Shown here: positions 5,016 through 54,437 of the stretch, piece after piece
How the letters are laid out: the number at the start of each line of letters is the position of its first letter
Numbering within the stretch: position 1 is the first letter of the stretch
From: an uncultured Bacteroidales bacterium
GTDB lineage: Bacteria > Bacteroidota > Bacteroidia > Bacteroidales > JAEINX01
Length of the DNA: 64,000 nucleotides
Assembly: GCA_964462015.1 (NCBI GenBank)
Contig: CAYWXI010000004.1
Location: 15,859-79,858 of the forward strand
Direction: 5' to 3'
Notes under the pieces: generated by a model
What the model was told of the DNA's origin: nothing
Databases searched by the model: none
The model's input: only the letters and a program-made list of their open reading frames with translations
Translations under genes and position numbers: made by a program

Positions 5016-5166
5016 GTGTTTGTTTTTTGTAGTTAATACATTTTTAGTTGGTGATATTTTTAAAACTCATATTGAAGAAATTGAAAATTAAAATTCATGA
5101 AAATTTTAGGATTCATTACATAATCATGCTCCTGTGTGTTCAATTTGCCTTGCAATATTTGTTTCA

Positions 5167-10107: not shown

Positions 10108-10177
10108 CTGTTAATATTTTTGTAACTGGCGCATATTTAAAAATTTGCGATTTTATTAAAAATTTGGTCTTCCCCCA

Positions 10178-10197
10178 AATTTCCAATTTCTAATTTC
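10178..10197 (-). repeat. (AATTTCY)3 heptamer tract, identical 20-mer to 18421-18440
   Basis: aatttccaatttctaatttc ends 3 nt from the stop codon of the upstream minus-strand GT4 gene (10201-10203). A local 8-bp hairpin pairs aaatttgg with ccaaattt. Confidence 0.7.
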
Positions 10198-10200
10198 ATT

Positions 10201-11394
10201 TCAAATTTCTTCATAAAACTTAACTAATTTTTGAATAATTTTCTCATTATCATATTCTTCTTCAATTAATTTTCGTGCATTCAATCCAATGGTTTCGCAT
10301 AATTCTTTTAATTTTATACATTTTTCTATTTGATCAACAAATTCTTCCGGAGTATTTGCAATCAAAATATTTTTATTTTCTTCATAATGAATTCCTTCAG
10401 CACCTAATTTTGTCGAAATAATTGTTTTACCAAGTGCCATTCCTTCTATTATTTTAATTCGTATTCCGCTACCCGAAAATAAAGGTACTATCATAATAGC
10501 TTTGGAATTAATAAAATCCCGGGCACTTCCAACCTCGCCAACAACTTCAACATTAGTTTTTTTGTTGTTAATCAACCATTCGGGCATTTCTCTACCTGCA
10601 AGATAAAATTTCAGTTCAGGCATTTTTTTATTTATCAAATCCCAGGTTTTATTTAGAAACCAATCAATTCCTTCTTCATTTGGCATCCAGTTCATTGATC
10701 CTATGTGAAACAAAGAAGGAAATTCATATTCATCATTTGACAAATGAAATTTATTCAGATTAATTCCAAAAGGAATATCAGTAATTGGCGTTTTCGTGCC
10801 TGTTTTTTTAAAAAAAACGGCATCGGTTTTTGTAATTGCAGCTATTCCGTCATACTTTTCTAAAGCCTCAAGCTCATAATTTTTAAGAGTTTTGCTAAGA
10901 TGAGATAAATAAAATTTCTTAATCGGATTTTTAGTAGTTTGAGTAATTCTATCCCAAATTATATGCTCAATATTATGGGCACGCAAAACAATTTTTGCAT
11001 TTGAGTGTTTACGAATTGTTTCAATATAAGGAGTAACATAAAGCGTTTCTAATTGAATTATATCGTATGTATTATTGTTAAGAATCTCAATGATTTTTTC
11101 GTCAAATTCTTTAGAAATAAATCTTTGAACATGATAGGATTTGGAAGAAAAAAGATTTAAAAAAGCATCTAACGGTTTTATTCTTAGATCAAGAAAAACA
11201 CCTTCTATTTGTGTTTTTTCTTTATAGTCATCAGGAATAGAATTAATATCGACGGAATATTTATAAGAATTAACTGCAAGAACCTTTACTTTATGGCCCG
11301 AATCAACTAATCCCTCAACAATAGTGTTCATAGCAATCGGGCCTCCTTCTTTTGGAGGATATGGTGATTTATTACAAATCAAAAGAATATTCAT
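10201..11394 (-). CDS. glycosyltransferase family 4 (GT-B)
   Basis: 397 aa. C-terminal MIVPLFSGSGIRIKIIEGMALGKTIIST motif. Confidence 0.85.
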   Translation of the reverse strand: MNILLICNKSPYPPKEGGPIAMNTIVEGLVDSGHKVKVLAVNSYKYSVDINSIPDDYKEKTQIEGVFLDLRIKPLDAFLNLFSSKSYHVQRFISKEFDEKIIEILNNNTYDIIQLETLYVTPYIETIRKHSNAKIVLRAHNIEHIIWDRITQTTKNPIKKFYLSHLSKTLKNYELEALEKYDGIAAITKTDAVFFKKTGTKTPITDIPFGINLNKFHLSNDEYEFPSLFHIGSMNWMPNEEGIDWFLNKTWDLINKKMPELKFYLAGREMPEWLINNKKTNVEVVGEVGSARDFINSKAIMIVPLFSGSGIRIKIIEGMALGKTIISTKLGAEGIHYEENKNILIANTPEEFVDQIEKCIKLKELCETIGLNARKLIEEEYDNEKIIQKLVKFYEEI

Positions 11395-18388: not shown

Positions 18389-18440
18389 GAAATTAGAAAT
18401 TGGAAATTCAAGAGAGTCCAAATTTCCAATTTCTAATTTC
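18389..18440 (-). repeat. perfect 20-bp stem / 12-nt loop hairpin in the kinase-regulator intercistronic gap
   Basis: gaaattagaaattggaaatt (18389-18408) and aatttccaatttctaatttc (18421-18440) are exact reverse complements. The loop is caagagagtcca. Confidence 0.9.
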
Positions 18441-18445
18441 AAGTT

Positions 18446-19528
18446 TCATTTTTTCAATATTAAAGGAATTTTCACAACGAATTCTTTTGGCTCCGACCCT
18501 ACATTTTCGGTTTCCGGTTGTTCTACAACAACTTCCTCTTTTGAAAGATATTTATACCTTAATTTAATATTTTCCAATCCAACATGGTTATCCCTTTTTT
18601 CATCATTCTTGTTTTCCTTGATGGTTTTCTTGATCTGCAAATTATTCTTAACAATAATGTGTTTATTATCCTTGAATATATCAATAGTCAAAGGTTTTTC
18701 TTTAGTAATGATATTATGCTTAATAGCATTTTCAACCAACAACTGAATCGACAACGGAATCACCATTATGTTTCCGGAATTGTTTAAATTGATATTTATT
18801 CTAAGGTTTTCACTGAACCGGATTTTTTGAAGAAAACAGTAATTATTAACAAAATCTATTTCGGTTTTAAGCGGCACAAGTTCAACATCTTTGACTTCTA
18901 ACACATAGCGATATACTTCCGACAATTGTTTAATAAACTCAACTGCTCTATCCTGATCGACATAAACTAATGATGACAAAGTATTCAAACTATTAAATAA
19001 AAAATGTGGATTCACCTGGTTTTTCAATGATTCGTATTCTAAAGACAATTTTTCGCGTTTTAAAATTTCTTCGTTAGTAACAGATATTCGCCATTGTTTG
19101 AAAAATTCGATTGAATAAAGAACAAAAATAATAATGATTGTAATCATCATTTGGATTACAAAAATCCAGTACCCGCCATGCTTGAAAATAAAATCATAAA
19201 AATTGTCTCCATGATAAAGCCCAAACCACAAATAATTTACTATAATTATTGTAATTGACGAAAATACAAGCATTATAATGATATGAACAAATATTCGTTT
19301 CTTTGGATTATCTTCCCATTTAACTATACGATCAATAAAGAGTTCAGGAAGTGTATTTGCTTCTAAAAGTGAAAAACCTATTATAAATGAGTAAAGTAAA
19401 TTGTTGGTAAAAAATTCAATAGTAAGATTTGATAAATTGGAAAAAAACAAAGAAAAACATAAACCAATTAAAGTTACTATAATTGTTACTCGTATATGCT
19501 TGTAAACGACCTGTTTAGTAATTTTCAT
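18446..19528 (-). CDS. LytS/YehU-type sensor histidine kinase
   Basis: 360 aa. Multiple TM helices, His_kinase region NPHFLFNSLN, C-terminal ATPase region (NAIKHN...GLENI). Confidence 0.85.
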   Translation of the reverse strand: MKITKQVVYKHIRVTIIVTLIGLCFSLFFSNLSNLTIEFFTNNLLYSFIIGFSLLEANTLPELFIDRIVKWEDNPKKRIFVHIIIMLVFSSITIIIVNYLWFGLYHGDNFYDFIFKHGGYWIFVIQMMITIIIIFVLYSIEFFKQWRISVTNEEILKREKLSLEYESLKNQVNPHFLFNSLNTLSSLVYVDQDRAVEFIKQLSEVYRYVLEVKDVELVPLKTEIDFVNNYCFLQKIRFSENLRININLNNSGNIMVIPLSIQLLVENAIKHNIITKEKPLTIDIFKDNKHIIVKNNLQIKKTIKENKNDEKRDNHVGLENIKLRYKYLSKEEVVVEQPETENVGSEPKEFVVKIPLILKK

Positions 19529-25717: not shown

Positions 25718-25763
25718 GGTCTGATATATAACCAAATTATTGAATATAAATATTCTTTCTATT

Positions 25764-28700
25764 ATGAAAAACCTTTTCACTTTCTTCGTTTTGCTTATAA
25801 GCATCAATATTCTTTTTGCTGATAATAATCCTTTATGGCTAAGATATCCGTCAATTTCTCCCGATGGTAAAACAATAGTATTTTCATATCAGGGAGATCT
25901 TTTCACTGTTGCTGCCACAGGCGGAGAGGCAAAACATTTAACAATTCATAAGGCTTATGATTTTATGCCGGTTTGGTCGCCCGATGGTAAATACATTGCA
26001 TTTGCATCCGACCGTCATGGTAATTTCGATGTTTTTATCATTCCGGCAAAAGGGGGCAAAGCCAAAAGATTAACTTTTAATTCAACGGGCGAATTCCCTA
26101 ATAGTTTCACACCTGATGCAAGCAAAATAGTTTTTTCGGCGACAATTAAAGATTTGAAAGATAATGTTCAGTTTCCTTCGGGAGTTTTATCGGAATTGTA
26201 CAGCGTGCCTGCCGAAGGAGGAAAAGTCAAACAAATTTTATCGACACCGGCAAAAATGGCTCACTACGATAAAGCACAAAAACGGATAATTTATCATGAT
26301 CGTAAGGGATATGAAAATAAATGGCGAAAACATCATACATCCGCGGTTGCCAGAGATGTATGGATTTACGATACCGAAACCGGTAAACATACAAAGTTGA
26401 CGGAGTTTGCAGGTGAGGACCGTAATCCTGTTTTTAGTCCCGATGAATCTGAAATTTATTATCTGAGCGAGAAAAACACTTCTTTCAATATTTGCAAATT
26501 CCCTGTCGATGATCCTCAAAATATTACGCAAATTACAGTTTACGAAGATCATCCTGTAAGATTTTTAAGTATCTCCGACAATGGAATTCTTTGTTATAGT
26601 TATGATGGTGAGATTTATACTTTAAAATCCGGAGAAATTCCTCAAAAAGTTTCAATAGAAATTTTAAATGATGATAAGGAAAATCAAGAGGAATTTTTAA
26701 CTCTGACATCGGGGGCAACGGAAATGGAACTTTCACCCAATGGAAAAGAAATTGTATTTATTGTGAGAGGCGAAGTTTTTGTTACTTCGGTGGATTTTGC
26801 AACAACTAAAAGGATCACCAACACACCTGAGCAGGAAAGGTCGGTAAGTTTTAGCCCCGACGGCAAATCAATTTTATATGCTTCGGAGCGAAACGGAAGC
26901 TGGAATATTTATCAAACAAAGATTACCCGTGAAAACGAAGATTTGTTTTCTCTTGCTACTATTTTAAAAGAAGAGCCTGTTCTGGAAATTAAAGAGGAAA
27001 CATATCAACCTCGTTTTTCGCCCGATGGAAAGGAAGTTGCATATTTGGAAGAAAGAGAAACACTGAAAGTTATTAATCTTAATTCAAAAAAATCAAGAAC
27101 AATCCTGGATGGAAAATATAATTATTCATATTCCGACGGCGATCAATGGTACGAATGGTCGCCCGACGGAAAATGGTTTATGGTGGAATACTCTCCAAAT
27201 GCGGTGTTTTTAAATGATGTAGCCTTAGTTGATGCAAAAGGAGGAAGCGAGCCCGTGAATTTAACCATGAGCGGTTATAGTGACAATCATCCTCGATGGA
27301 TGATGAAAGGAAATGTAATGATATGGTATTCTGATCGTAATGGAATGCGAAGCCACGGAAGCTGGGGTTCGCAGGACGATGTTTGGGCAATGTTTTTAAA
27401 TCAGAAGGCTTATGATAATTTTAAAATGACCAAAGAAGAATATAAATTAATAAAAGAAAAAAAAGAAAAAGAAAAAAAGAAAAAAAATAAAGGTGAGGAA
27501 AATGATGAGGAAGAGGAAATAATTGAAGATATAAATATTGATCTAAAAAATATTGAAGACCGTAAAGAAAGACTTACGATAAATTCATCTTCACTCGCTG
27601 ATGCAATTCTCAGTCCTGACGGTGAAAAATTATATTATCTAAGCAAATTTGAAGACGGTTACGATTTATGGGTTAATAAACTTAAAGATAAAGAAACCAA
27701 ATTACTTGTTAAATTGAAGGGAGGAGCGGGAGCTTTGCAAATGGATAAAAAGGGAGAAAATTTGTATTTGTTTTCCAATAAGCAAATAATTAAAATTAAG
27801 GTTGATGGCAAACCCGAAAAAAAAGCTGTAAGCTACAAAGCTGAGTTTAATCTCGATAAAAGACTTGAACGTGAATATATGTTTGAACATGCATGGCGAC
27901 AAGTGCAAAAAAAATTCTATAATCCCGATCTTCATAATGTTGACTGGGATTATTTCAAGAAAGAGTATAAAAAGTTTTTACCTTACATAAATAATAATTA
28001 CGACTTTGCTGAAATGTTAAGCGAAATGCTTGGCGAATTAAATGCCTCGCATACCGGTTCGGGCTATCGGTCTTCTTCAAAAAACGGGGACAGGACTGCA
28101 AAACTCGGAGCATTCTTCGATGAAACTTATGAAGGTACAGGTATTAAAATTATTGAAATTATTGATAAGAGCCCTCTGTTGCAGGCTGATTCAAAAATAA
28201 AATTTGGAGATATTATTGAAAAAATTGATGGAGTGACGATCTCACCTGATATGAATTATTATCAATTACTTAATCATAAAGCAGGAAAAAACACATTATT
28301 GTCGATTTATGATCCACGATCAAAGAAACGCTGGGAAGAAATAATAAAACCCATTTCGGCAGGAGCAGAAAGTCAATTATTATACAAGCGATGGGTGAAA
28401 AATCGCCGGGAAGAAACCGATAGATTATCCAATGGAAGAATAGGCTATGTGCATGTAAGAAGCATGAACAGTTCAAGCTTCCGTGAATTTTACTCAGAAG
28501 TTTTAGGCAGAAGCTGGGATAAGGAAGCTTTGATAGTCGATACTCGCTTTAATGGCGGAGGCTGGTTGCACGATGACCTGGCAACTATGCTTGCCGGTAA
28601 AAAGTATGCCGATTTTTACCCAAGAGGAGTTCATTACGGTCACGAACCAATGAATAAATGGATCAAGCCTTCAATCGTACTTATCAGCGAAAGTAATTAT

Positions 28701-28991
28701 TCCGATGCTCATGGTTTCCCGTATGCTTACAAAACTCTTGAGATCGGTGAACTTGTGGGAATGCCGGTCCCCGGAACTATGACAGCGGTTTGGTGGGAAA
28801 CTCTTCAGGACAGGTCTTTATATTTTGGTATTCCCCAGGTTGGTGCTAAAGACATGCAGGGAAATTATCTTGAAAACAAACAACTCGAACCAGATCATAA
28901 AATCAGGCAGGATTATGATATTGTGATACAGGGACGCGACCAGCAATTAGAGAAAGCGATTGAAGTATTGTTGGAAGGTTTGGATGAATAA
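25764..28991 (+). CDS. tricorn-like protease (TolB-like beta-propellers + PDZ + S41 peptidase)
   Basis: Start moved to ATG 25764 (MKNLFTFFVLLISINILFA signal peptide). Repeated SPDGK propeller motifs, a PDZ-like region, and a C-terminal S41 core (VDTRFNGGG...ISESNYSDAH). Confidence 0.9.
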   Translation: MKNLFTFFVLLISINILFADNNPLWLRYPSISPDGKTIVFSYQGDLFTVAATGGEAKHLTIHKAYDFMPVWSPDGKYIAFASDRHGNFDVFIIPAKGGKAKRLTFNSTGEFPNSFTPDASKIVFSATIKDLKDNVQFPSGVLSELYSVPAEGGKVKQILSTPAKMAHYDKAQKRIIYHDRKGYENKWRKHHTSAVARDVWIYDTETGKHTKLTEFAGEDRNPVFSPDESEIYYLSEKNTSFNICKFPVDDPQNITQITVYEDHPVRFLSISDNGILCYSYDGEIYTLKSGEIPQKVSIEILNDDKENQEEFLTLTSGATEMELSPNGKEIVFIVRGEVFVTSVDFATTKRITNTPEQERSVSFSPDGKSILYASERNGSWNIYQTKITRENEDLFSLATILKEEPVLEIKEETYQPRFSPDGKEVAYLEERETLKVINLNSKKSRTILDGKYNYSYSDGDQWYEWSPDGKWFMVEYSPNAVFLNDVALVDAKGGSEPVNLTMSGYSDNHPRWMMKGNVMIWYSDRNGMRSHGSWGSQDDVWAMFLNQKAYDNFKMTKEEYKLIKEKKEKEKKKKNKGEENDEEEEIIEDINIDLKNIEDRKERLTINSSSLADAILSPDGEKLYYLSKFEDGYDLWVNKLKDKETKLLVKLKGGAGALQMDKKGENLYLFSNKQIIKIKVDGKPEKKAVSYKAEFNLDKRLEREYMFEHAWRQVQKKFYNPDLHNVDWDYFKKEYKKFLPYINNNYDFAEMLSEMLGELNASHTGSGYRSSSKNGDRTAKLGAFFDETYEGTGIKIIEIIDKSPLLQADSKIKFGDIIEKIDGVTISPDMNYYQLLNHKAGKNTLLSIYDPRSKKRWEEIIKPISAGAESQLLYKRWVKNRREETDRLSNGRIGYVHVRSMNSSSFREFYSEVLGRSWDKEALIVDTRFNGGGWLHDDLATMLAGKKYADFYPRGVHYGHEPMNKWIKPSIVLISESNYSDAHGFPYAYKTLEIGELVGMPVPGTMTAVWWETLQDRSLYFGIPQVGAKDMQGNYLENKQLEPDHKIRQDYDIVIQGRDQQLEKAIEVLLEGLDE

Positions 28992-29149
28992 GTGCTTGCC
29001 AGAAAACGCCAATTTCTTTCCCGAAAAGTCGGGACAGGCTGTTATGCTCGTGCAGAAAATCAGCCATCTACAATAGTAAACTCTTGATTTTCTGCATTTC
29101 GCATTCCGATAGCTATCGGAACAAACTTGACGTTTTCTGTCTAAGCACT
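28991..29149. other. 159-nt multibranch palindromic element (outer 7+9 bp stem enclosing three hairpins), MITE-like or structured 3' element
   Basis: Outer arms agtgcttgccagaaaacg and cgttttctgtctaagcact. Inner hairpins at 29019-29034 (tcccga-aaag-tcggga), 29051-29096 (12-bp stem) and 29104-29121 (ttccgatagctatcggaa). It starts at the last base of the tricorn stop codon. Confidence 0.65.
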
Positions 29150-29218
29150 CCAAAATATTGAGTTTTCACTTTTGGTTATCATGCTGCTTTTTTCCCAATT
29201 TTCATTGTCGAATCCTTT

Positions 29219-29417
29219 CAGGATTCTGTAATGTGATTTTTTACTTTTTGACCACAGGTTTCACCTGTGGCTATTCACGTTTAACCACTTCGTGGTTTGC
29301 TAATGCATGAGATTTTTTAAACAATCCTGAAAGGATTGAATATGAATAGCCCTGTACGAAGTGCAGGGAAAACAAAACAGTATTTAAAAAAGAACCCTGA
29401 AAGGGTTCAACAAATTG
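29219..29417. repeat. hairpin-cassette cluster (six short hairpins, two hairpin-linker-hairpin modules)
   Basis: 29219-29235, 29261-29279 + ctattcacgttt + 29292-29306, 29332-29346 + gaatatgaatag + 29359-29377, and 29401-29417. Loops are TTTCA/TTC in the first half and TGAAA/GAA in the second. Confidence 0.8.
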
Positions 29418-29541: not shown

Positions 29542-31296
29542 TCATTCCAATTCTTTCATTATCTTCAATTTCAATTCATCCAATTGTTCTTCGGAAATTG
29601 ATGAAGGCGAGTCAATCATCACATCTCTTCCCGAATTGTTTTTCGGGAAAGCAATAAATTCACGGATTGAATCCTGTCCGCCAAATAATGCAACCAAACG
29701 ATCGAAACCAAGAGCAATACCACCATGAGGGGGTGCCCCGAATTCAAAAGCATTCATTAAAAAACCAAATTGATCCTGGGCTTCTTCGTCGGTGAAACCA
29801 AGATGTTTAAACATTAGTTTTTGAAGATCACGATCATGAATACGAATCGAACCTCCACCAATTTCAACACCATTAATAACCATATCATAAGCATTTGCAC
29901 GAACATTTCCGGGAGCGGTTTCCAGCAATTCTATATCCTCTGCTTTTGGTGACGTGAAAGGATGGTGCATTGCGTGATAACGTTTAGTGTCTTCATCCCA
30001 TTCGAGTAACGGAAAATCTACAACCCAAAGAGGGCAATAGCTCAACGGATCGCGAAGTTCAAGGCGATTGCCCATTTCGAGACGTAATTCACAAAGGGCT
30101 TTTCGAGTGTGATCAGTCTCACCTGCAAGAACGAGTAAAAGGTCACCGGGTTTTGCACTAAATTTCTCAGCCCAGAGTTTCAATGCTTCCTGATCAAAAA
30201 ACTTATCTACAGATGATTTAAAACTTCCGTCTTCATTACATTTTACATATACCAAACCATTTGCACCAATCTGGGGCTTTTTAACAAAATTAGTTAATTT
30301 ATCTATTTGTTTTCTTGAGTATGTTCCGCAATTTTTCGCACAAATACCAACAATCAATTCAGCATCATCGAAAACTTTAAAATTCTTTCCTTTAGCAACA
30401 TCGTTTAATTCTGCAAATTTCATCCCGAAACGAATATCAGGTTTATCCGAGCCATAATATTTCATTGCTTCAGAATAAGACATCACCGGAAATTTTTCAA
30501 CTTCAATTCCTTTGACTTCTCTAAAAAGATATTTTGCAAGTCCTTCGAAAGTTTCCAAAACATCATTCTGATCAACAAATGACATTTCGCAGTCGATTTG
30601 AGTGAATTCCGGTTGGCGGTCAGCTCTCAGGTCCTCATCACGAAAACATTTTACAATCTGATAATAACGATCATAGCCGGCGATCATTAATAATTGCTTA
30701 AATGTTTGAGGTGATTGAGGTAAAGCATAAAATTCTCCTTCATTCATACGAGAAGGTACAACAAAATCTCTGGCACCTTCAGGTGTTGATTTAATTAAAT
30801 AAGGAGTTTCGATTTCAAAAAATCCTATTGAATCAAGGTATTTTCTCGTTTCAATCGACATGCGATGCCTGAGTTCCATGTTTTTTTTCAAGGGATTTCG
30901 ACGTAAGTCTAGATAACGATATTTCATCCTTAGTTCTTCACCGCCATCGGTATTATCCTCAATAGTAAAAGGAGGTAGTTTTGATTTATTTAAAACTTCG
31001 AGTTTTTCAACAATTATCTCAATTTCTCCTGTAGGGATTTTCAGGTTTTTATTGCTACGTTCTTCAATTTCACCACTTACACAAATAACAAATTCTCGTC
31101 CGAGTTTCCGGGCTTCTTCGCATAAAGCTGAATTTTTTTCCATATTAAAAACCAATTGGGTAATTCCATATCGGTCGCGAAGATCAATAAAAGTCATTCC
31201 ACCCAAATCTCTCGATTTCTGTATCCATCCGCATAAAGTTGTTTTCTGTCCTACATTTTTTTTACTTAATTCTCCGCAATTATGTGATCGTAACAT
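29542..31296 (-). CDS. aspS: aspartate--tRNA ligase
   Basis: 584 aa. OB-fold N-terminus and class II motifs ([34 protein letters not shown]). Confidence 0.97.
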
Positions 31297-31646: not shown

Positions 31647-32078
31647 TACTGATAAAAATTGGTATTACAAAAATAGTAAATTATAGTTTAATGAAACTTG
31701 AGATTAGAAATTAGTCCTGAGCATTCAGCAATTTTCAATTGGTAATTGATTATTGTCTATTGCCTGCCCATCTGAAATATAATGAAGGCGGGATTATTAA
31801 AAAATTGTTATTCAGTATGATAAATGAATTATGGTGATAATTTTACTTTTTGTGTATTTTGAGTCTTAGAGCCTTAGTGGCTAATTTTTCTCTAATTGCC
31901 ACAAAGACACCGAGGCACTAAGGTTCATAAAGAAAACATCAAAAAAACAACCATCATATTTTATATTGGTATTTACGTTTTTAATAGTTTGATTATTTAT
32001 TCATTACCATATTTTTTGCTAATTATCTTATCTATAAAAAATCACTGAGTATTCGGGAAGAAATTCAGAAAAAATCCA

Positions 32079-32105
32079 AATTTCTAATTTCTAATTTCCA
32101 ATTTC
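32079..32105 (-). repeat. (AATTTCY)4 heptamer tract directly abutting a stop codon
   Basis: aatttctaatttctaatttccaatttc ends at the base before the ClC gene stop (32106-32108). Same word family as 10178-10197 and 18389-18440. Confidence 0.7.
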
Positions 32106-45764: not shown

Positions 45765-48700
45765 GTGGATGATGAAATATCTGGTTTAACCAATATAGGT
45801 TTTACATTTTCTTATAACGGTATTGATTATACACAATTTAAGGCAAGTTCAAATGGTTTTGTGAACTTAGGAGGAGCGCTTTCAGATTCTTATTGGTCCA
45901 ACGATCTGGAAAGCAGTACTAAAAAAGAAATATTGGCACCCCTCTGGGATGATCTTGAAACTAATACCGCTGGAAGTATCGGATATGAATTAAGCGGGTC
46001 ATCAGGAAGCTATATTTTGAAAATTGAGTTCAAAAATTTAGACTTCAATGGAGATTATGGAACAAATATGTATTTCCAGGTTTGGCTTTATGAAGCAACC
46101 TACGAAGTTGAATTCCGGTATGGAGCAATGGGTACGTGGACGGGGCAAAGTGCAAGTATCGGCCTAAATGATGAAACTGATGATCGTTTTATGAGTATTA
46201 CCCCTGCTGAGACACCTACATATAATACTGAAACAGTGAACAATTCAATAGCTACAAATGATTATCTCACAAACGGACTTAGATACAGTTTTAATAAAGG
46301 AAGCGATTGGTATTGTTGGAAAGGAGCAAGCAACACCGATTGGGCAACAGAAGCTAATTGGTATGGGGGTGCGTTTCCAACTACCTCACAACATGTTACA
46401 ATATCAAAGGGGAAGTCCTATGATCCCATTATAGATGAGACCGCTGCATGCAATGACTTGGGTATTGGAGATGGCACTAAAGTAACGGTGAATACTGGTA
46501 CTGATCTTACAGTTAATGATGATATTTGGGTATGTAGCGGTGGTGAGTTTGAATTGAATGGAGGTACGGTGACAGTTAGTGATGGTTTTAGATCAGTAGC
46601 TAATAGCACTGTTGACATTAATGGAGGCACATTAAATATCGGAGGCGACTGGGAGCTAAATTCTAGTGACGAATCAGCAAAGGGAACAATAGAATTATCA
46701 GGAGGAACTATTAATATTACTGATGATTGCTGTTTTTCCTCGAGTGATGTGACCGGCTCAATGACAGGTGATTTTCAAATGACAATAGGGGATGATTTTA
46801 AGATTAGTTCCAACACATGGAGTGATCCTACTGGAGGTACAATTATATTAACTGCATCAAAAGATGGTAGTATGTATTTATTCTCGAACAATGCTTCGTC
46901 TGATGTCATTGCCTATAACCTTACGATCAACGGATCAGGTAATAACTTTTATATGGCATCTACCGGTGATCTCGTTGATCAGGGCATACATATTTTTAAC
47001 AACTTCACGCTTACTACCGGTACTGTTGAAACAAAAGATGCCGATGGACATACTGATAAATTGGATGTTAATGGAACTTTTAGTATGGGAAGCGGCTCTC
47101 ATTTTAAAGATGCCATAGAATCTACTGATACGTATAGTGTGGGTAGTTTTAGTTTTGATGCAGCCAGTACATATGAGTTTTACGGTACTGCTCAAAATAT
47201 TCCAGCAACTACCTTTGGACATCTCAATGTTAGTGCGGCCGGGACAAAGTCAATAACAGGAAATACAACTGCTGCAGGAAACCTCTCAATAACAGCAGGT
47301 GTGTTAAGTGCTACTGAGACCAATGGATTTACTATAACAGGAACCACTACCAACAGTGTGGGAGCAGCAGGTTTAGTTGTAGAGTCAGACGCCTCCGGTA
47401 CCGGTTCAGTTATTTTTGGTGGTACTGTAACAGGAGATGTTACAGTTGAACGCTTTCTCACCCACGACAGATGGCATTACATAGCAGGCCAAAGCAATAT
47501 TTCAGGAAATTTCAGCACATTGAGTATGGGATTGACAGGAGGAGTAAATAACGACCAGTTTTACCGCTGGGATGAAAGCCTGGATTGGGGAGGAAATGTC
47601 GGGAACTGGGTTGATATCCTAAACGGCCCTAATGGTAATGACCCAACAATGGCAACTGAAGGTTTTTTGGCATGTAAAGGATATGCTATCAATTATATTA
47701 CCACCGATAAAACTTTAAGCCTAAGCGGAGCACCTTATACTGTCGATAAGAGTATCAACCTTACAAAAACTACAGGAAGCTTAAATGAAGGTTGTAACCT
47801 TGTTGGCAATCCTTTTACTTCCACTCTTGCAGTAAATACAGATGCCGAGACTACCAACAACTTTCTTACACAGAATACAGATGTCCTTGATGCATCTTAT
47901 GTAGCTGTTTATTTGTGGAACGAACAGGCTGGCTGGACCTATCCGGACAATAATGATTATGTTACCATTAATAATTCAAGCGGAGCAACATATATTCAAG
48001 CGGGACAGGCCTTTATGGTAGTAGCAAAAACCAATGGTGCATCTTTATCTTTTCCGGCAGCAATCAGAAAGCATGGATCAGCCTCTTTCTATAAAAATCA
48101 GGTTAACGATGAAGTTTCAAGGTTTGAACTCGGTGTATTTAACCCTGAAGGACAAACCAACTCAGTACTTATTGCTTTTATCCCCGAAATGACAAACGGC
48201 CTTGATCCTTCGTATGATGCCGGAAAAATGAGCGGCAATGCCAGTCTTTCACTCTACACAAAACTTGTTGAAGATAACGGCCATAATTTTGCAATCCAGG
48301 CCCTGCCACCATTAGATGGTACTACTTCTGTGAAATTAGGTTTAAGGGCAGAACTCACCGGAACGTATAAGTTTGAACCTGTTAATGTTGAAAACTTTAA
48401 TGAGAGTGTTTCCATTAAACTGGAAGATAAACAAACCGGTGCAATGATTGATTTAACAACCATTCCTGAATATTCATTTGGGATAAATGAAGCCGGAACC
48501 TTTGATGACAGGTTTGTGCTGCACTTTAAAGGGGCTGTCGGTATTGAGGAAGTGCTGGAAAGCAATAAAATACGTTTTTATGTTTACGACAATAAACTTT
48601 ATATTATTGATAAAGAACTGAAAAACGCAACAATTCAGTTATTCAATATGCTTGGGCAACCGGTGATGAAAAAACAATATTCACAAGCAGTAAATGTCAT

Positions 48701-48785
48701 TGATTTAAATCTATCGAAGGGATATTATATTGTTAGAATTATTACGAATAAGATGTCAGTAAAGGGGAAAATATATGTTGAGTAG
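45765..48785 (+). CDS. T9SS-sorted surface protein paralog 1 (NIDO-like N-terminal region, beta-helix-like repeats, T9SS CTD); probably 5'-truncated
   Basis: 1006-aa ORF with only a GTG start, no signal peptide, and a frame open back to 45714 without an ATG. The C-terminal 70 aa is a type A T9SS sorting domain. Confidence 0.6.
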   Translation: MDDEISGLTNIGFTFSYNGIDYTQFKASSNGFVNLGGALSDSYWSNDLESSTKKEILAPLWDDLETNTAGSIGYELSGSSGSYILKIEFKNLDFNGDYGTNMYFQVWLYEATYEVEFRYGAMGTWTGQSASIGLNDETDDRFMSITPAETPTYNTETVNNSIATNDYLTNGLRYSFNKGSDWYCWKGASNTDWATEANWYGGAFPTTSQHVTISKGKSYDPIIDETAACNDLGIGDGTKVTVNTGTDLTVNDDIWVCSGGEFELNGGTVTVSDGFRSVANSTVDINGGTLNIGGDWELNSSDESAKGTIELSGGTINITDDCCFSSSDVTGSMTGDFQMTIGDDFKISSNTWSDPTGGTIILTASKDGSMYLFSNNASSDVIAYNLTINGSGNNFYMASTGDLVDQGIHIFNNFTLTTGTVETKDADGHTDKLDVNGTFSMGSGSHFKDAIESTDTYSVGSFSFDAASTYEFYGTAQNIPATTFGHLNVSAAGTKSITGNTTAAGNLSITAGVLSATETNGFTITGTTTNSVGAAGLVVESDASGTGSVIFGGTVTGDVTVERFLTHDRWHYIAGQSNISGNFSTLSMGLTGGVNNDQFYRWDESLDWGGNVGNWVDILNGPNGNDPTMATEGFLACKGYAINYITTDKTLSLSGAPYTVDKSINLTKTTGSLNEGCNLVGNPFTSTLAVNTDAETTNNFLTQNTDVLDASYVAVYLWNEQAGWTYPDNNDYVTINNSSGATYIQAGQAFMVVAKTNGASLSFPAAIRKHGSASFYKNQVNDEVSRFELGVFNPEGQTNSVLIAFIPEMTNGLDPSYDAGKMSGNASLSLYTKLVEDNGHNFAIQALPPLDGTTSVKLGLRAELTGTYKFEPVNVENFNESVSIKLEDKQTGAMIDLTTIPEYSFGINEAGTFDDRFVLHFKGAVGIEEVLESNKIRFYVYDNKLYIIDKELKNATIQLFNMLGQPVMKKQYSQAVNVIDLNLSKGYYIVRIITNKMSVKGKIYVE

Positions 48786-48800
48786 GAATAGGATGCAGGA
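47392..48800 (+). repeat. 1.4-kb direct repeat, copy 1 (shared 3' region of the T9SS paralogs)
   Basis: Aligns with 49748-51156 at a constant offset of 2356 nt with no indels. The translated copies differ at only 5 of the last 430 aa. Confidence 0.9.
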
Positions 48801-48999
48801 TACAGGATACAAGTTACAGGATACAAGATACTTGAAACCCGAAACTATAAATTTTATCAAAAAAAGAGAAGAATTTATAATAAGTAAGATAAATATTTTT
48901 TCATGCGTTTGCCCTGATAATACCACTTTTTATAATATATCTAAATTAAGGAAAGTTTATTGCAATTCAAAAAAAAATTTGTATATTAGCACAAATGTT

Positions 49000-51141
49000 A
49001 TGCTTTTGATTATGAAATCATTTATAATATTTTTTGCAATGATATTGCTTCCAGGTTTGATGCAATCCCAAACCATAGCCGGAGGCAATCCCGGTTTTGA
49101 ATCTGACTTTAGTGGATGGACACGGTTGATAAATTGGGGGGCAGGGACTACACATATTTCTATTTCTACTTCAAACCCTCAGAGTGGTTCGAAAGCAGCT
49201 TTTTTTGATGCAGGACCTACTTATTATGAACAACTTTATGCAGACATAACCGGCTTAACTATATCAACAAAATATACATTGTCTTTTTATGCTGCAGGAG
49301 AAGAAGCTGATTTTTATGTTGGCCCAACCTCTAACGTATATGAAGGGACTTATTATTATGTAGATTGTGGCAGTTCAGGACTAACCTACTATTTACAAGT
49401 TGTGGGCTTTACAGCTACCGCAACTACAATGAGAATCTGGTTTGATTTTTACCCCGCTATGGATATGTATGTTGATAATTTTGTAATAACTGAAACGCCT
49501 GTATGGGAAGGAACTACCAACACTGATTGGGCAACCGGAACAAATTGGAGTACTGGAACTGAGCCCGGCTCATCTGATTATATTGTTTCGGTACCAAATA
49601 CTACAAATGATCCTATTATTTCAACAACTGTTTCTGTATATGAAATTAGTATTGAGAGCGGGGCAGATTTTACTATTGCTTATAATGGCAATTTAACATC
49701 ATTAAATAGTTTTACGAACGCTGGAACTTTCACTATTAAATCAACATCTTCCGGAACCGGTTCCGTTATAATAGAAGGGAGTGCTACAGGAGATGTTACC
49801 GTAGAGCGCTTTCTTACCCACGACAGATGGCATTACATAGCAGGCCAAAGCAATATTTCTGGAAATTTCAGCACATTGAGTATGGGGCTGACAGGTGGAG
49901 TAAATAACGACCAGTTTTATCGCTGGGATGAAAGTCTGGATTGGGGAGGAAATATCGGGAACTGGGTTGATATCCTAAACGGCCCTAATGGTAATGACCC
50001 AACAATGGCAACTGAAGGTTTTTTGGCATGTAAAGGATATGCTATCAATTATATTACCACCGATAAAACTTTAAGCCTAAGCGGAGCACCTTATACTGTC
50101 GATAAGAGTATCAACCTTACAAAAACTACAGGAAGCTTAAATGAAGGTTGTAACCTTGTTGGCAATCCTTTTACTTCCACTCTTGCAGTAAATACAGATG
50201 CCGAGACTACCAACAACTTTCTTACACAGAATACAGATGTCCTTGATGCATCTTATGTAGCTGTTTATTTGTGGAACGAACAGGCTGGCTGGACCTATCC
50301 GGACAATAATGATTATGTTACCATTAATAATTCAAGCGGAGCAACATATATTCAAGCGGGACAGGCCTTTATGGTAGTAGCAAAAACCAATGGTGCATCT
50401 TTATCTTTTCCGGCAGCAATCAGAAAGCATGGATCAGCCTCTTTCTATAAAAATCAGGTTAACGATGAAGTTTCAAGGTTTGAACTCGGTGTATTTAACC
50501 CTGAAGGACAAACCAACTCAGTACTTATTGCTTTTATCCCCGAAATGACAAACGGCCTTGATCCTTCGTATGATGCCGGAAAAATGAGCGGCAATGCCAG
50601 TCTTTCACTCTACACAAAACTTGTTGAAGATAACGGCCATAATTTTGCAATCCAGGCCCTGCCACCATTAGATGGTACTACTTCTGTGAAATTAGGTTTA
50701 AGGGCAGAACTCACCGGAACGTATAAGTTTGAACCTGTTAATGTTGAAAACTTTAATGAGAGTGTTTCCATTAAACTGGAAGATAAACAAACCGGTGCAA
50801 TGATTGATTTAACAACCATTCCTGAATATTCATTTGGGATAAATGAAGCCGGAACCTTTGATGACAGGTTTGTGCTGCACTTTAAAGGGGCTGTCGGTAT
50901 TGAGGAAGTGCTGGAAAGCAATAAAATACGTTTTTATGTTTACGACAATAAACTTTATATTATTGATAAAGAACTGAAAAACGCAACAATTCAGTTATTC
51001 AATATGCTTGGGCAACCGGTGATGAAAAAACAATATTCACAAGCAGTAAATGCCATTGATTTAAATCTATCGAAGGGATATTATATTGTAAGAATAATTA
51101 CGGATAAGATGTATGTAAGTGGGAAAATATATGTTGAGTAG
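49000..51141 (+). CDS. T9SS-sorted surface protein paralog 2 (CBM4/9-like N-terminal domain, shared C-terminal region, T9SS CTD)
   Basis: Start moved to ATG 49000/49012 (MLLIMKSFIIFFAMILLPGLMQSQ signal peptide). GNPGFESDFSGW...MYVDNFVITE is a CBM-like domain. The C-terminus is near-identical to paralog 1. Confidence 0.8.
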   Translation: MLLIMKSFIIFFAMILLPGLMQSQTIAGGNPGFESDFSGWTRLINWGAGTTHISISTSNPQSGSKAAFFDAGPTYYEQLYADITGLTISTKYTLSFYAAGEEADFYVGPTSNVYEGTYYYVDCGSSGLTYYLQVVGFTATATTMRIWFDFYPAMDMYVDNFVITETPVWEGTTNTDWATGTNWSTGTEPGSSDYIVSVPNTTNDPIISTTVSVYEISIESGADFTIAYNGNLTSLNSFTNAGTFTIKSTSSGTGSVIIEGSATGDVTVERFLTHDRWHYIAGQSNISGNFSTLSMGLTGGVNNDQFYRWDESLDWGGNIGNWVDILNGPNGNDPTMATEGFLACKGYAINYITTDKTLSLSGAPYTVDKSINLTKTTGSLNEGCNLVGNPFTSTLAVNTDAETTNNFLTQNTDVLDASYVAVYLWNEQAGWTYPDNNDYVTINNSSGATYIQAGQAFMVVAKTNGASLSFPAAIRKHGSASFYKNQVNDEVSRFELGVFNPEGQTNSVLIAFIPEMTNGLDPSYDAGKMSGNASLSLYTKLVEDNGHNFAIQALPPLDGTTSVKLGLRAELTGTYKFEPVNVENFNESVSIKLEDKQTGAMIDLTTIPEYSFGINEAGTFDDRFVLHFKGAVGIEEVLESNKIRFYVYDNKLYIIDKELKNATIQLFNMLGQPVMKKQYSQAVNAIDLNLSKGYYIVRIITDKMYVSGKIYVE

Positions 51142-51156: not shown

Positions 51157-51345
51157 TACAAGATACAGGATGCAGGATAATGAACACTATAGCCTGTATA
51201 TTAATCGAAAACTACCCATTCTATTAATCGAAAAGTATCCACTTTTTAAAAGACCAGCCTGATTATTGCAAATAATCGGCGTAAATCAATGGATAAAAGG
51301 GATCAATGTGAAAAGTTGGAGGGTATTTAAAAAAAAACAGGGGCA

Positions 51346-51507
51346 ATCTTCTGCTGCAGATAGGGCTTCTCGATGTCAAGAAAAACTATCTGTTGCTGCG
51401 TATAGGGCTTCTCAATGTCAAGAAAGGCTATCTGTTGCTGCGAAGCTTCTCAATGTCAAGAAAGTTGATCTGCTGTTGCAGATAGGATACCTCGGAGTCA
51501 GGAAATT
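51346..51507 (+). repeat. 4-unit tandem array, 42-nt period (one 38-nt unit)
   Basis: Units start at 51346, 51388, 51430 and 51468. Consensus atctgttgctgcgtatagggcttctcaatgtcaagaaaggct. Shares period, orientation and the core GCTGC..ATAG..CTTCTC with the 53.7-kb array. Confidence 0.8.
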
Positions 51508-51661
51508 AAAGCTTATAGTCAAAAAAGGTTCTATCAGAATTAGTAAGCTAATCAACTAAGTAATATAATCAGAATAATTTCAATAATTCAAGAAAATATA
51601 TGATAACGAAAGAAGAATATGGAGGAGTAGAGTGCTTTTATCATTCCTCAAAATGTGCCTG

Positions 51662-52075
51662 CTAATTTGTTAGTATTGCTGTTGCTTCAATTTCTATAAG
51701 ACACCCAAAATGTAATTCCCTTGTCGGAATAATGCTTCTTACTGGTTTATGGTCTTCGAAAAAAGAACTGTATCTTTCGTTTACTTTATCCCAAAGAGCA
51801 ATATTTGATATATAAACACGCATCTGAAGCACCTGGTTTTTTGAACTACCTGCCTCATTCAAAATTAATTCAACATTTTTTAATGCCTGATCGGCCTGCT
51901 CTTCAATAGTTTTTGGAATAGATTTAGTAATCGGGTCAATTGGAAGTTGCCCTGATAAGTACAAAATTCCATTATGATGAATGCATTGTGAATAATGGCC
52001 ATTACTCTTTGGCATTTTTGAGGTTTCTATAATTTCCATTTTATTAATATTTTTCGATAACTCATTTTTAATCAA
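51662..52075 (-). CDS. ridA: RidA/YjgF-family reactive-intermediate deaminase
   Basis: 137-aa ORF (likely true start ATG 52039, MEIIETSKMPKSNGHYSQ). YLSGQLP...RVYI...R..IPTRELHFGCLIEIEA is typical of the family. Confidence 0.85.
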   Translation of the reverse strand: MIKNELSKNINKMEIIETSKMPKSNGHYSQCIHHNGILYLSGQLPIDPITKSIPKTIEEQADQALKNVELILNEAGSSKNQVLQMRVYISNIALWDKVNERYSSFFEDHKPVRSIIPTRELHFGCLIEIEATAILTN

Positions 52076-52349
52076 AATATATGTTTTTCTTTGTGAAACT
52101 TTGAGTTTTCTTCGTGATTCTTTGCCGCAATAACTATTTCAAAGAAGTATCAAAGAAAATACATCGTTACACAAAAGTATGATAAAAAACGATTTATTAT
52201 AATATTCTGAACATAAAAATATTTCGTTATTTTATATAAATAATGAACACAGAAAAAGGAACATCGAATAATGAATTTTTATCAGCATTCATCATTCCTT
52301 GTTCAATATTCGATATTTTTTAAAAACAAATTCAAACCTTGAAATTTCA

Positions 52350-52597
52350 AACCACAAAGTGGTTAAACGTGAATAGCCTCAGGTTTACCCCGTGGAATAA
52401 TAGCTTTGCTATTCAACGGGGTGAACCTGTGGATATAAAGCAGAAAGACACATCAATAACCCCAAAGGGGGTTTAATAAATCAATATAAGTACTCGCTTG
52501 TTGTTAACATTAAACCCTTTCAGGGTTTTTTGCTGATTATATTTTATTACCCTGCACTTCGTACAGGGCTATTCATATTTAATCCGCTTTGCGGATT
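52350..52597. repeat. hairpin-cassette cluster, inverted copies of the 29.2-kb modules
   Basis: aaccacaaagtggtt + aaacgtgaatag + a nested 56-nt hairpin (52377-52432). Then 52458-52473, 52512-52528, and ccctgcacttcgtacaggg + ctattcatattt + aatccgctttgcggatt (52550-52597). Confidence 0.8.
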
Positions 52598-52629
52598 GTC
52601 TGTCCTTCTTTCTATTTTTTCCAATTATT

Positions 52630-53589
52630 TCAAACAATCAAAATCTCAATTTCTCCCACCACCTCAGTATTCTTATTTGTTATTAAAATATAGTCATTCC
52701 CAGCATCACCGAGTTCGCTTGCAAGGCACGACTTTTCGTTGTCGGCCTCAATGACTATTGCATTTTCGGGACAAGAAGCATCGGGAGTAGCTGCCGAAAA
52801 AGCATATAATGTAACATTACCGAAATTATTAAACCTGAAAACATCATTTTCATCAAACTCAATTCCAGCATCGGTTGTGGAATCAGGTTCAATGCTTATT
52901 ACATGAGGTTCGGGGCCTGATTTCTTCTCATGCGCGCGAATATTTTCCAATTCAAAAAATTCCTCAACAGTTTCGGGGTTTTGATAATATAAGTTCATCA
53001 GGTATCCGAGATTTGCATACATAATTTCACCGGCTGCAATACGCGCCTGGTCCAATTCTCCCGAAGTGGAAGCCGTAAGCTGCTCTTTTTGTTGCTGAAC
53101 ATCACGAGCTGCCAACAACTCCTTATAACAAGCATCAACCTCACTTTGTGCAGTTGCCAGCAATTCGTAATTTAAAAGTGTTTCGGCCAATGCTCCCACC
53201 TTTGCAATTCGTGTTTCGAAATTACCAATCCTGAATGTCGTACGTCCATCGGGGAAAATAATTTTAAAATCAGCCGACCTTTCAGGATACTCAATTCTTA
53301 CCATTGCTTCCCATCGTGGTATTTTTACGGCACTTAATTCATTCATTAAATTATTGAATCGCAATGTTTCGCCTTCACGAATACCTTTTGCCGACTTCCA
53401 TGAATTAAATTTAGCCGATAGCTCATTTTTTGCCGTAGTTGTCCGCTCAATTATTGGCTGAATTTCTACATCCGATTCTTTTGCCTTTAGTTTTGATTCA
53501 TGATCGGTGATAATGCTAAGCATTTTAACATAGCTACCTTTAGTAACGTTTACAAAAACATTAACTAAATAATTCCAGGTTCTTTTCAT
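52630..53589 (-). CDS. orphan hypothetical protein (helical N-terminal two-thirds, small beta-rich C-terminal domain)
   Basis: 319-aa ORF with an ATG start and clean coding-like composition. No motif I recognise, no signal peptide or TM helix. Confidence 0.6.
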   Translation of the reverse strand: MKRTWNYLVNVFVNVTKGSYVKMLSIITDHESKLKAKESDVEIQPIIERTTTAKNELSAKFNSWKSAKGIREGETLRFNNLMNELSAVKIPRWEAMVRIEYPERSADFKIIFPDGRTTFRIGNFETRIAKVGALAETLLNYELLATAQSEVDACYKELLAARDVQQQKEQLTASTSGELDQARIAAGEIMYANLGYLMNLYYQNPETVEEFFELENIRAHEKKSGPEPHVISIEPDSTTDAGIEFDENDVFRFNNFGNVTLYAFSAATPDASCPENAIVIEADNEKSCLASELGDAGNDYILITNKNTEVVGEIEILIV

Positions 53590-53695
53590 TTTTTTAAAAT
53601 TTTAATTAATAAATAATTTTATAATTAGTTGATATTGCAACTTTTTCAAATATGTTTGCTTTATTGGAACCTTTTTCTTTGTTGTTGAAAACAAT

Positions 53696-54157
53696 ATTCT
53701 GCAGCACCAGATAGTTTCCCAAAACATTTTGTGACGCATTCTGTAGTAAGAAATAGCTTCTCCAAACATTTAGTGACGCATTCTGTGGCAAGGGATAGCC
53801 TCCCCAAACGTTTAGTGACGCATTCTGTAGCAAGAGATAGCTTCTCCAAACATTTAGTGACGCATTCTGTGGCAAGGGATAGCCTCCCCAAACGTTTAGT
53901 GACGCATTCTGTAGCAAGAGATAGCTTCTCCAAACATTTAGTGACGTATTCTGCTTCAAAAGATAGCCTCCCCAAACGTTTAGTGACGCATTCTGTAGAA
54001 AGGGATAGCTTTCCCAAACGTTTAGTGAGGCTTTCTGCTGCAAGAGATAGCTTCTCCAAACGTTTAGTGACGCATTCTGTAACTGCAGATAGCTTCTCCA
54101 AATATTTAATGATGCATTCTGCTGCAAGAGATAAACTCTATAAATGTCTGATAACTC
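53696..54157 (+). repeat. 11-unit tandem array, exact 42-nt period, alternating A/B unit types
   Basis: Units start at 53696 + 42n. A = attctgtagcaagagatagcttctccaaacatttagtgacgc. B = attctgtggcaagggatagcctccccaaacgtttagtgacgc. The terminal units are degenerate. Confidence 0.95.
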
Positions 54158-54437
54158 ATTTTTCCTCAGCAGATTACATTTCTCAAAAAGAAAAACACCC
54201 TTCAGTAGCACTTTACAATCAGTTTTTAGCTTAAGATAATTTCTTAAAAATGTTCAATTAATGTTATCAAAAACAAAGAAACCGTTAATGTTTAAACAAT
54301 ATTTTTAGAAAAAACTTTATATCGATTTTTTGTTTTCGATTTTGCGTAGCAATATTACAAAAAAATAATTAATAAAACAAAAACCGGAAAAAAAAATTTT
54401 TGTTCTACTACCATTTTAGTGGGTAAGGAATATAAAG

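Follow-up and report, generated by a model that had tools for sequence, protein, structure and literature searches.

Double-hairpin modules of a Bacteroidales genome as probable gene-less relatives of an IS200-like Y1 transposase element

TnpA of IS608 and ISDra2 and the E. coli protein TnpA-REP bind hairpins in single-stranded DNA (ssDNA) and cut at a short sequence set relative to the hairpin foot. Two types of described system are built on such enzymes. The insertion sequences (IS) of the IS200/IS605 family have subterminal hairpins as ends. In the REP-RAYT systems, or "REPtrons", of E. coli, Pseudomonas and Stenotrophomonas, repetitive extragenic palindromes (REP) and their doublets (REPIN) accompany a REP-associated tyrosine transposase (RAYT). 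Here we analyze a 64-kb stretch of DNA from an uncultured Bacteroidales bacterium, referred to as the window, in which two intergenic clusters of a double-hairpin module occur at 29210–29408 (locus 1) and approximately 52343–52609 (locus 2). The organism is low in G+C (33%); a sorting domain of the type IX secretion system and AspS homologues labelled Bacteroidales, with 81–82% identity, support its placement in this order. Each cluster probably consists of end structures, copied without the gene, of an IS200-like Y1/HUH element with the signature of TnpA-Y1 subclass 1.2. The clusters are best understood as non-autonomous ssDNA elements similar to REP/REPIN or to palindrome-associated transposable elements (PATE).

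The complete element, as found in other genomes, shares several traits with REP-RAYT. A small Y1/HUH gene stands between inverted short hairpin repeats; copies that lack the gene, doublets and arrays are scattered through intergenic DNA; and the hairpin is strand-specific with a conserved short sequence at its 5' foot. In contrast to REP, this foot is ATAG/ATAA instead of GT[AG]G, the repeat is bipartite with two hairpins and a conserved 12-nt linker, and each stem is short, perfectly paired and capped by a G-N-A triloop. The Y1 protein belongs to class 1 (Y-x3-Q-x2-HH), whereas TnpA-REP belongs to class 2 (Y-x3-NP), and the linker is common to several phyla, unlike REP families, which are usually restricted to one lineage. 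IS200/IS605 is the closest transposase family by sequence, with the same HUH and catalytic tyrosine motifs and with subterminal hairpins as ends. Locus 2 resembles a PATE in that it is an internal-deletion derivative retaining both ends. However, canonical IS200/IS605 end hairpins lie on the same (top) strand without terminal inverted repeats, whereas the ends described here are inverted; in addition, the Y1 element has no tnpB and the published copy number of its gene is low. The module and its Y1 gene work like REP/REPIN-RAYT or PATE and yet fail defining features of both, because there is no GT[AG]G foot, the protein is not class 2, and the ends are not on the same strand.

TnpA-Y1 subclass 1.2 has been described as having "no REP", no IS properties and a mean copy number of 1.7 (Quentin, Siguier, Chandler and Fichant 2018, PMC6006769). 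Our proteins match this subclass in length (about 148 aa), in the HuH motif DHxH, in the WQ and Y[IV]KNQxxHH motifs, in a conserved C-terminal tail and in Bacteroidetes hosts. They differ from the published account in that a conserved double-hairpin module flanks most of the genes, and in that the hosts also include Beggiatoaceae, Balneolaceae, Chlorobiota and others. The automatic REP search in that study required GT[AG]G, so repeats with an ATAG/ATAA foot would escape it, and its table of manually found REPs holds nothing that resembles the module. In Rfam, the window gave no match at gathering score, and no module match appeared at E ≤ 1 in four module-rich loci. An ATAG/GAATAG double hairpin is likewise absent from papers on REP, RAYT, miniature inverted-repeat transposable elements (MITE) and the repeats of Beggiatoaceae (PMC3733652, PMC12306157, PMC11602168, PMC4853749), and a literature search with raw sequence strings returned primers only. 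As judged from the open-access literature and Rfam, the module family therefore seems to be undescribed for subclass 1.2. The initial annotation of the window had reasoned that a match to a known REP or MITE family would remove the novelty; the element does work like one of REP/MITE type, but we did not find this particular family described in these sources.

Structure, covariation and distribution of the module

The module is 46 nt long and reads, on the strand opposite to the one written in the initial annotation, as hairpin B, the 12-nt linker RAAYRTGAATAG and hairpin A. Hairpin B consists of a 6-bp stem (AAYCNN/NNGRTT) with a GAA loop, and hairpin A of an 8-bp stem that starts with CC and ends with GG, with a G-N-A loop. 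The matches listed comprise 166 instances, of which 145 have hairpin B and 134 have hairpin A exactly at the expected offsets; the main geometry is 6 bp plus 3 nt for B and 8 bp plus 3 nt for A. The B loop was GAA in 70 of the 145, while the A loops included GAA (56), GCA (28) and GGA (10). G-N-A triloops, often closed by a C-G pair (cGAAg), give unusually stable DNA mini-hairpins, as reported by Hirao and by Yoshizawa, and thus fit a structure formed at the DNA level. A model for this behavior, d(GCGAAGC), shares the G-N-A loop and frequent C-G closure with our modules, but it is a biophysical oligonucleotide, whereas here the motif is part of a genomic repeat in which many A loops are closed by T-A.

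The occurrence of the module in the window is far from random. The core CTATTCAYRTTY has four exact matches (29271+, 29338−, 52365− and 52569+) where 0.16 are expected, and none of 100 shuffled sequences gave four. The two longest inverted repeats of the entire window are the inter-locus pairs 29252–29299/52348–52395 (88%) and 29333–29376/52542–52585 (91%). Plain enumeration of perfect G+C-containing hairpins showed them piled up at 29210–29408 and 52350–52597, and both spacers fold as ssDNA much more stably than shuffled sequences (z = −7.3 and −7.6). A covariance model, R1, was built from copies in other genomes and run unfiltered over the window. It returned four full modules (29319–29372+, 29248–29301−, 52346–52399+ and 52546–52601−, with 52–69 bits) and partial matches to three lone B hairpins; the 64 kb contained no other convincing match. 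A fourth lone B hairpin was located among the enumerated hairpins and in alignments with intact elements. The window thus holds four full modules per 64 kb and four lone B hairpins, all confined to two spacers.

These results bear out much of the initial annotation, which had proposed a family of the form hairpin, conserved linker, hairpin in both orientations, with GAA-type loops on the strand opposite to the one it wrote (our GAATAG strand) and with three hairpins of locus 1 facing one way and three the other. Its coordinates for locus 2 (52350–52597) were right, while those for locus 1 were shifted by +9. It had also noted that loops and one stem differ between loci; the apparently different stem of copy X at locus 2 is in fact a 58-nt hairpin created by a 37-nt insertion in an A loop. 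Finally, it had claimed that stem sequences change while pairing is kept. Four window copies alone cannot show compensatory change, but an alignment of 150 copies from other genomes (A1) does so overwhelmingly.

Both stems co-vary strongly in A1, with pairing kept while the stem sequence changes. Standard pairs fill 83% of the pair cells, compared to 31–51% when the partners are slid by one to three columns. Double changes were counted in 330 cells versus 103.5 in shuffled alignments (0 of 500), and 9 of the 14 pairs show them. In otherwise intact helices with a single non-Watson–Crick pair, this pair was G-T on the GAATAG strand in 37 cases and A-C, corresponding to G-T on the other strand, in 8. 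This asymmetry identifies the GAATAG strand as the folding strand.

The initial annotation had proposed to scan the genome and related genomes with a covariance model or regex, and further copies do exist. A scan of 185,579 species-representative genomes with GRTTRAAYRTGAATAGCC (the linker plus stem edges) found at least 119 matching genome stretches. Among the matches listed, and with taxon names as labelled in the records of metagenome-assembled genomes (MAGs), the carriers include many orders of Bacteroidota (Saprospiraceae, Prolixibacteraceae, Chitinophagaceae, Bacteroidales), the Beggiatoaceae (Ca. Parabeggiatoa, Halobeggiatoa, Marithrix, Thioploca), Balneolaceae, Chlorobiota, Marinimicrobia and Thermoanaerobaculia, as well as single MAGs of Pedosphaera (Verrucomicrobiota) and Hyphomicrobiales. 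Single Parabeggiatoa or Halobeggiatoa assemblies had matches on many separate contigs, and matches also came from the cultured carriers Gaoshiqia sediminis A06 and Carboxylicivirga sp. M1479. A handful of matches, for example in Calothrix, Amphritea, Sphingobacterium and Rhizobiaceae, have no hairpins and are due to chance. Phage carriage was rejected as a route across phyla: viral contigs yielded only four pattern matches and no Y1 homologue. Many module matches lie at contig ends.

Direct tandem arrays contain up to five copies with near-identical spacers, for example five at a 66-nt period in L096 (loci in other genomes are designated in this way) and four in L059. A CRISPR-like reading of the periodic arrays of 65–115 nt in L096, L059 and L004 was rejected, because the spacers are copies of each other and therefore indicate tandem duplication. 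In two Parabeggiatoa MAGs, oligonucleotide repeats adjoin module arrays: (TTAATTG)n at about 1775–1800 of L046 and a repeated tagtacaacgaattcttt at 420–480 of L059. They recall the TAACTGA direct repeats that are reported for marine Beggiatoaceae (PMC4679880). According to a crude open reading frame (ORF) heuristic that counts non-independent tandem copies separately, 152 of 165 module copies lie outside predicted ORFs, 77 have the same orientation as the upstream gene and 41 the opposite one, and 21 lie between divergent genes. The copies inside predicted ORFs are in spurious ORFs that span arrays, except for a chance match in L076.

Linkage to a Y1 transposase gene

In L004, the module array begins 33 nt after an ORF of 148 aa that contains an HUH motif (DHLH) and a tyrosine motif (YVKNQEEHH). 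The encoded protein matches Pfam Y1_Tnp (PF01797, E = 5e-21) and the NCBIfam model transpos_IS200 (59.7 bits with a cut-off of 55, E = 3e-16). Its best relatives in the PDB, at E ~1e-4, are a Deinococcus radiodurans transposase of ISDra2 type (2fyx) and ISHp608 TnpA, and E. coli TnpA-REP is absent among the PDB matches at E ≤ 1. The tyrosine motif Y[VI]KNQExHH corresponds to the subclass 1.2 signature Y-x3-Q-x2-HH (Table 1 of PMC6006769). In public databases, the protein is annotated as "IS200/IS605 family transposase" or generically as "REP element-mobilizing transposase RayT", and the group comprises at least 3770 clusters at 90% identity.

The linkage between module and gene holds in both directions. 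Among the matches listed, Y1 homologues with 61–79% identity occur in 10 of 119 8-kb blocks selected by the module, each of them adjoining modules; gene-less single modules and direct arrays far outnumber these 10 genes. For the reciprocal comparison, 80 metagenome loci were selected by the Y1 protein alone. A sequence-only nhmmer profile found modules in just 50 of these loci and was replaced by the covariance model and a strict structural scan. With R1, 304 matches were obtained at E ≤ 0.01, and at least 77 of the 80 loci had one or more; the strict scan found 141 full modules versus 1 in shuffled sequence.

Position and orientation of the modules are equally specific. By the strict scan, a plus-strand module lies within 150 nt upstream of the Y1 start in 40 of 72 loci, and only a minus-strand module in 2. 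In the 150 nt that follow the stop, a minus-strand module is present in 33 of 72 loci and a plus-strand one alone in 4. Both ends are present in 20 loci. The distances between module and gene cluster at 45–60 nt, and lone B hairpins stand directly 5' of the Y1 ATG and directly 3' of its stop. The intact unit is thus [B-linker-A][B] – 148-aa Y1 gene – [B'][A'-linker'-B'], about 680 bp with inverted ends.

Individual loci show variants of this arrangement. The Y1 gene of L150 (3001–3447) carries an in-frame stop (KNK*CHLY) and is a pseudogene, while the near-identical copy in L136 is intact; the ends that flank the L150 gene are those most similar to the window copies. Some 800 nt upstream of its intact gene, L004 also carries a fragment of a second Y1 copy (4935–5117), in which 19 aa match the N-terminus with 95% identity. 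In L056 (600–2260, Balneolaceae), minus and plus modules alternate at a 449-nt period around one Y1 gene; this pattern can be understood as a mini-element without a gene, a full element and the beginning of a further one, arranged in tandem. In L020 (4642–4676), from a Tangfeifania MAG, a DUF805b RNA (RF02914, 39.2 bits, above the gathering score) is located about 600 nt upstream of the Y1 element.

The two loci of the window

Locus 2 is bordered by a hypothetical gene (52630–53589, −), at its 3' end, and by the start of a RidA-family gene (51662–52075, −). It is a Y1 element from which the gene has been deleted. Its order, read on the plus strand of the window, is module (+), lone B (+), about 40 nt, lone B (−), module (−), and its minus strand can be aligned over its full length to L136, L150 and L130, which are intact elements. 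On this strand, the left part comprises a Y-type module, a lone B hairpin, a 17-nt leader and the first 11 nt after the start codon; the right part comprises the last bases and stop codon of the ORF (TTGA), followed by the right end (RE), which consists of a lone B' hairpin and an X-type module. The junction, 52484/52485, is situated between short TTAT repeats, and locus 2 therefore looks like an internal deletion.

The individual parts of locus 2 are well defined. The left-end (LE) module Y2 occupies 52550–52597 (−; R1 51.9 bits, E = 3e-13), with hairpin A at 52550–52568, the linker at 52569–52580 (reverse complement AAATATGAATAG) and hairpin B at 52581–52597, here with a 7-bp stem; it is 80–86% identical to the left end of L136 and L150. 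The lone B hairpin of the LE (52512–52528, −) was aligned to intact elements and is covered by a partial R1 match at 52502–52531(−) with 18.2 bits (E = 0.0013). In intact elements, about 17 nt separate its counterpart from the Y1 start codon downstream. The remnant of the Y1 ORF (52481–52497, −), identified by alignment to L136, L150 and L130, retains the first 11 nt after the start (GAGTACTTATA, 52495–52485) with ATG changed to GCG, and the stop codon at 52483–52481. On the plus strand follow the lone B hairpin of the RE (52458–52473, aacccc-AAAG-ggggtt, a perfect 6-bp stem), which aligns to the hairpin 3' of the Y1 stop codon, and the RE-type module X2 (52350–52434, R1 54.4 bits). In X2, hairpin B (52350–52364) and the linker AAACGTGAATAG (52365–52376) precede a hairpin A of 58 nt (52377–52434). 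Alignment to L136, L150 and L130 shows that the 37-nt loop insertion mentioned above is palindromic. The same long type of hairpin A is present in L018, another Bacteroidales MAG.

L136, L150 and L130 have common flanks and hence represent one orthologous locus rather than independent insertions. The proteins that flank locus 2 did not match those of this locus, and orthology of locus 2 with it was rejected.

Locus 1 fills a spacer between two convergent genes, one encoding a tricorn-type protease (25740–28991, +) and the other aspS (29542–31296, −). It is a right-end/left-end junction doublet with the ends 24 nt apart, comparable to a REPIN, and has the order lone B (−), module (−), 24 nt, module (+), lone B (+). 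Since the linkers are complementary, all 200 nt together can form a branched quasi-palindrome. The first lone B hairpin (29210–29226, −) is the gene-proximal hairpin of the RE; it reads gaatcc-TTTCA-ggattc on the plus strand, has a perfect 7-bp stem, gave a partial R1 match at 29199–29229(−) with 12.9 bits, and aligns to the hairpin directly 3' of the Y1 stop in L150 and L136. Module X1 (RE type, 29252–29297, −) was found by R1 (66.5 bits, E = 2e-17) and by the strict structural scan. It consists of hairpin A (29252–29270), the linker (29271–29282, reverse complement AAACGTGAATAG) and hairpin B (29283–29297), and is 85% identical to the right end of L150. The LE-type module designated Y1 (29323–29368, +; R1 68.7 bits, E = 4.5e-18, also found by the strict scan) consists of hairpin B (29323–29337), the linker GAATATGAATAG (29338–29349) and hairpin A (29350–29368) with one T-G wobble. 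The lone B hairpin of the LE (29392–29408, +; partial R1 match 29389–29412+) is followed by TTTTTT on the minus strand.

The composite of locus 1 recurs in L018 with 91% identity over 152 nt, spacers included. There it lies between a 2-oxoacid:ferredoxin oxidoreductase gene and a queD-like/proS pair, a context unrelated to that of locus 1. In the closest relatives available, which have AspS proteins with 93–94% identity and retain the tricorn–aspS synteny, the corresponding spacers measure 263 and 157 nt compared to 550 nt here, and the covariance model with filters off found no modules in them. The cluster of locus 1 is thus a presence/absence polymorphism, a lineage-specific gain or loss. 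L201 seems to contain a remnant, TTAATAG with gtatttaaaaaa after it, but the resemblance was considered too weak to be used.

Two more perfect hairpins stand just 3' of the tricorn stop, at 29019–29034 (tcccga-AAAG-tcggga) and 29104–29121 (ttccgat-AGCT-atcggaa). They were rejected as members of the family for want of a module match, and no T runs follow them.

Proposed mechanism, competing explanations and other repeats

If the Y1 protein behaves like IS608/ISDra2 TnpA and E. coli TnpA-REP, it might bind and cleave the modules and mobilize them in trans in the following way. When the DNA becomes single-stranded, the GAATAG strand would fold into two small hairpins with very stable GNA triloops. 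A Y1 dimer would recognize the shape of the hairpins together with the linker. The ATAG of the linker, which at the 5' foot of hairpin A takes the place of the REP GTAG, could be used for recognition or cleavage. The dimer would then cut and rejoin nearby and so move or copy modules or doublets in trans. Recognition by shape plus linker would leave the stems free to drift as long as they pair, with the linker near-fixed across phyla. Since the ends are inverted, each strand would carry only one end in its "active" form, and the Y1 gene itself may be immobile as are RAYTs, which would agree with the low copy number reported for subclass 1.2. The outermost lone hairpin of locus 1, which precedes T6 when read on the strand of aspS, may have come to serve this gene as a terminator.

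On balance, we slightly favor the broader proposal that the double-hairpin module is the unrecognized cognate DNA partner of TnpA-Y1 subclass 1.2. This would be a REPIN-RAYT-like system that arose within class 1 independently of the class 2 RAYTs and spread over at least five or six phyla, keeping one 12-nt linker while both stems stayed free. If so, an orphan group of HUH/Y1 enzymes gains a testable DNA substrate, specified by sequence, strand, two hairpins and a candidate foot or cleavage region. It would also suggest that REP-like domestication or parasitism evolved more than once in the Y1 superfamily. The module family would explain thousands of unexplained intergenic hairpin arrays in Bacteroidota and in giant sulfur bacteria (Beggiatoaceae), arrays that also break MAG assemblies and that could be annotated with R1. 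A recognition rule of sequence plus shape that holds across phyla may interest developers of HUH-tag or ssDNA tools.

Several observations weigh against deriving the window clusters from such an element. There is no Y1 gene within the 64-kb window, only the ORF remnant at locus 2. The inverted ends differ from those of canonical IS200/IS605 and do not imply that the element as a whole moves by simple "peel and paste". IS200/IS605 elements insert 3' of a specific tetra- or pentanucleotide and do not duplicate the target, but the orthologous tricorn–aspS spacers are too diverged to place insertion boundaries or a target site here. The bias in orientation relative to the upstream gene is moderate and could also be produced by a role in RNA. 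Furthermore, the invariance of the linker in A1 arose partly by construction, since the search pattern fixed it. In the protein-selected loci, the linker reads R-A-A-Y-N-T-G/A-A-A-T-A-G/A, with 82–100% agreement per position and a hairpin A foot of ATAG in 91 and ATAA in 36 of 132 matches; these matches were found with a model trained on A1.

A possible, if rather doubtful, alternative is that the Y1 element is an ordinary autonomous IS200-type element whose complete LE–gene–RE unit transposes, the window copies being decayed PATE or MITE relics with no REP-RAYT-like domestication involved. This interpretation is partly compatible with the evidence. As described above, IS200/IS605 TnpA is the nearest match to the protein in sequence, both ends of a discrete unit, 80–86% identical to intact copies in another gene context, persist in locus 2, full and mini elements form a tandem run in L056, and one intact-looking copy, in L150, is a pseudogene. 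On the other hand, the two ends are inverted copies and do not share a strand, Quentin et al. found a mean copy number of 1.7 and no IS properties in this subclass, and gene-less modules and arrays far outnumber the genes. The three intact elements to which locus 2 was aligned moreover mark a single orthologous locus.

We consider it unlikely that the modules act at the RNA level as terminators, attenuators or 3'-end stabilizers of flanking mRNAs and are selected for RNA structure. Such a role could account for the strand-specific wobble pairs, the nearly exclusive intergenic location, the excess of copies oriented like the upstream gene, the terminator-like lone hairpin with T6 at aspS and the T-rich sequence after the hairpin directly 3' of the Y1 stop. 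However, both orientations occur inside one spacer, copies are also found between divergent genes, and the sequence that follows hairpin A in full modules is A-rich, not T-rich. A scan of all hairpins of both window spacers for the intrinsic-terminator pattern, a G+C-rich hairpin followed by a T run, identified only 29408–29392 on the minus strand. The initial annotation had regarded the symmetric series in locus 1 as possible bidirectional terminators and proposed to tabulate orientation relative to flanking genes; neither the single terminator-like hairpin nor the ratio of 77:41 supports this idea, and the symmetry is explained instead by a Y1-transposase element whose left and right ends are inverted. 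A function in RNA is also made less likely by the direct tandem arrays, which reach five copies with near-identical spacers, and by the flanking of a transposase gene by modules as inverted ends. The absence of a match to an Rfam family and the G-N-A triloops, which typify stable DNA mini-hairpins and not RNA tetraloop-type motifs (Hirao; Yoshizawa), point the same way.

It is highly improbable that the palindromes are double-stranded sites bound by a protein of the host, be it a regulator or, as has been proposed for bacterial interspersed mosaic elements (BIMEs), nucleoid proteins or gyrase, with an incidental Y1 association: the linker is conserved, the arrangement is palindromic and E. coli REP/BIME elements are generally known to bind IHF, gyrase and Pol I, but neither the asymmetry of G-T versus A-C pairs nor free stem covariation with a fixed loop class is expected of such sites, and the Y1 linkage is two-way, specific in position and orientation, and very strong.

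The window contains other repeats. The minus-strand ORF 53606–54211 (201 aa, no Pfam match) includes a 42-nt tandem repeat at 53696–54133 with 10.4 copies (81% match) and an 84-nt super-period (87%); in the protein, this would give a repeat of 14 residues. An unrelated 42-nt tandem repeat (51352–51463, 2.8 copies, 88%) lies in a small plus-strand ORF without a Pfam match (51266–51559), just downstream of a gene with a Por_Secre_tail domain of the type IX secretion system (48775–51141). This gene and the adjacent large gene 45765–48785 share a 300-nt segment with 93% identity (47394–47693 versus 49750–50049), which suggests recent paralogues or gene conversion. Finally, an AT-rich repeat, TCCAAATTTCCAATTTCTAATTTC, occurs with 81–90% identity at 10174–10204, 18417–18447 and 32075–32105, in short spacers directly 3' of minus-strand genes.

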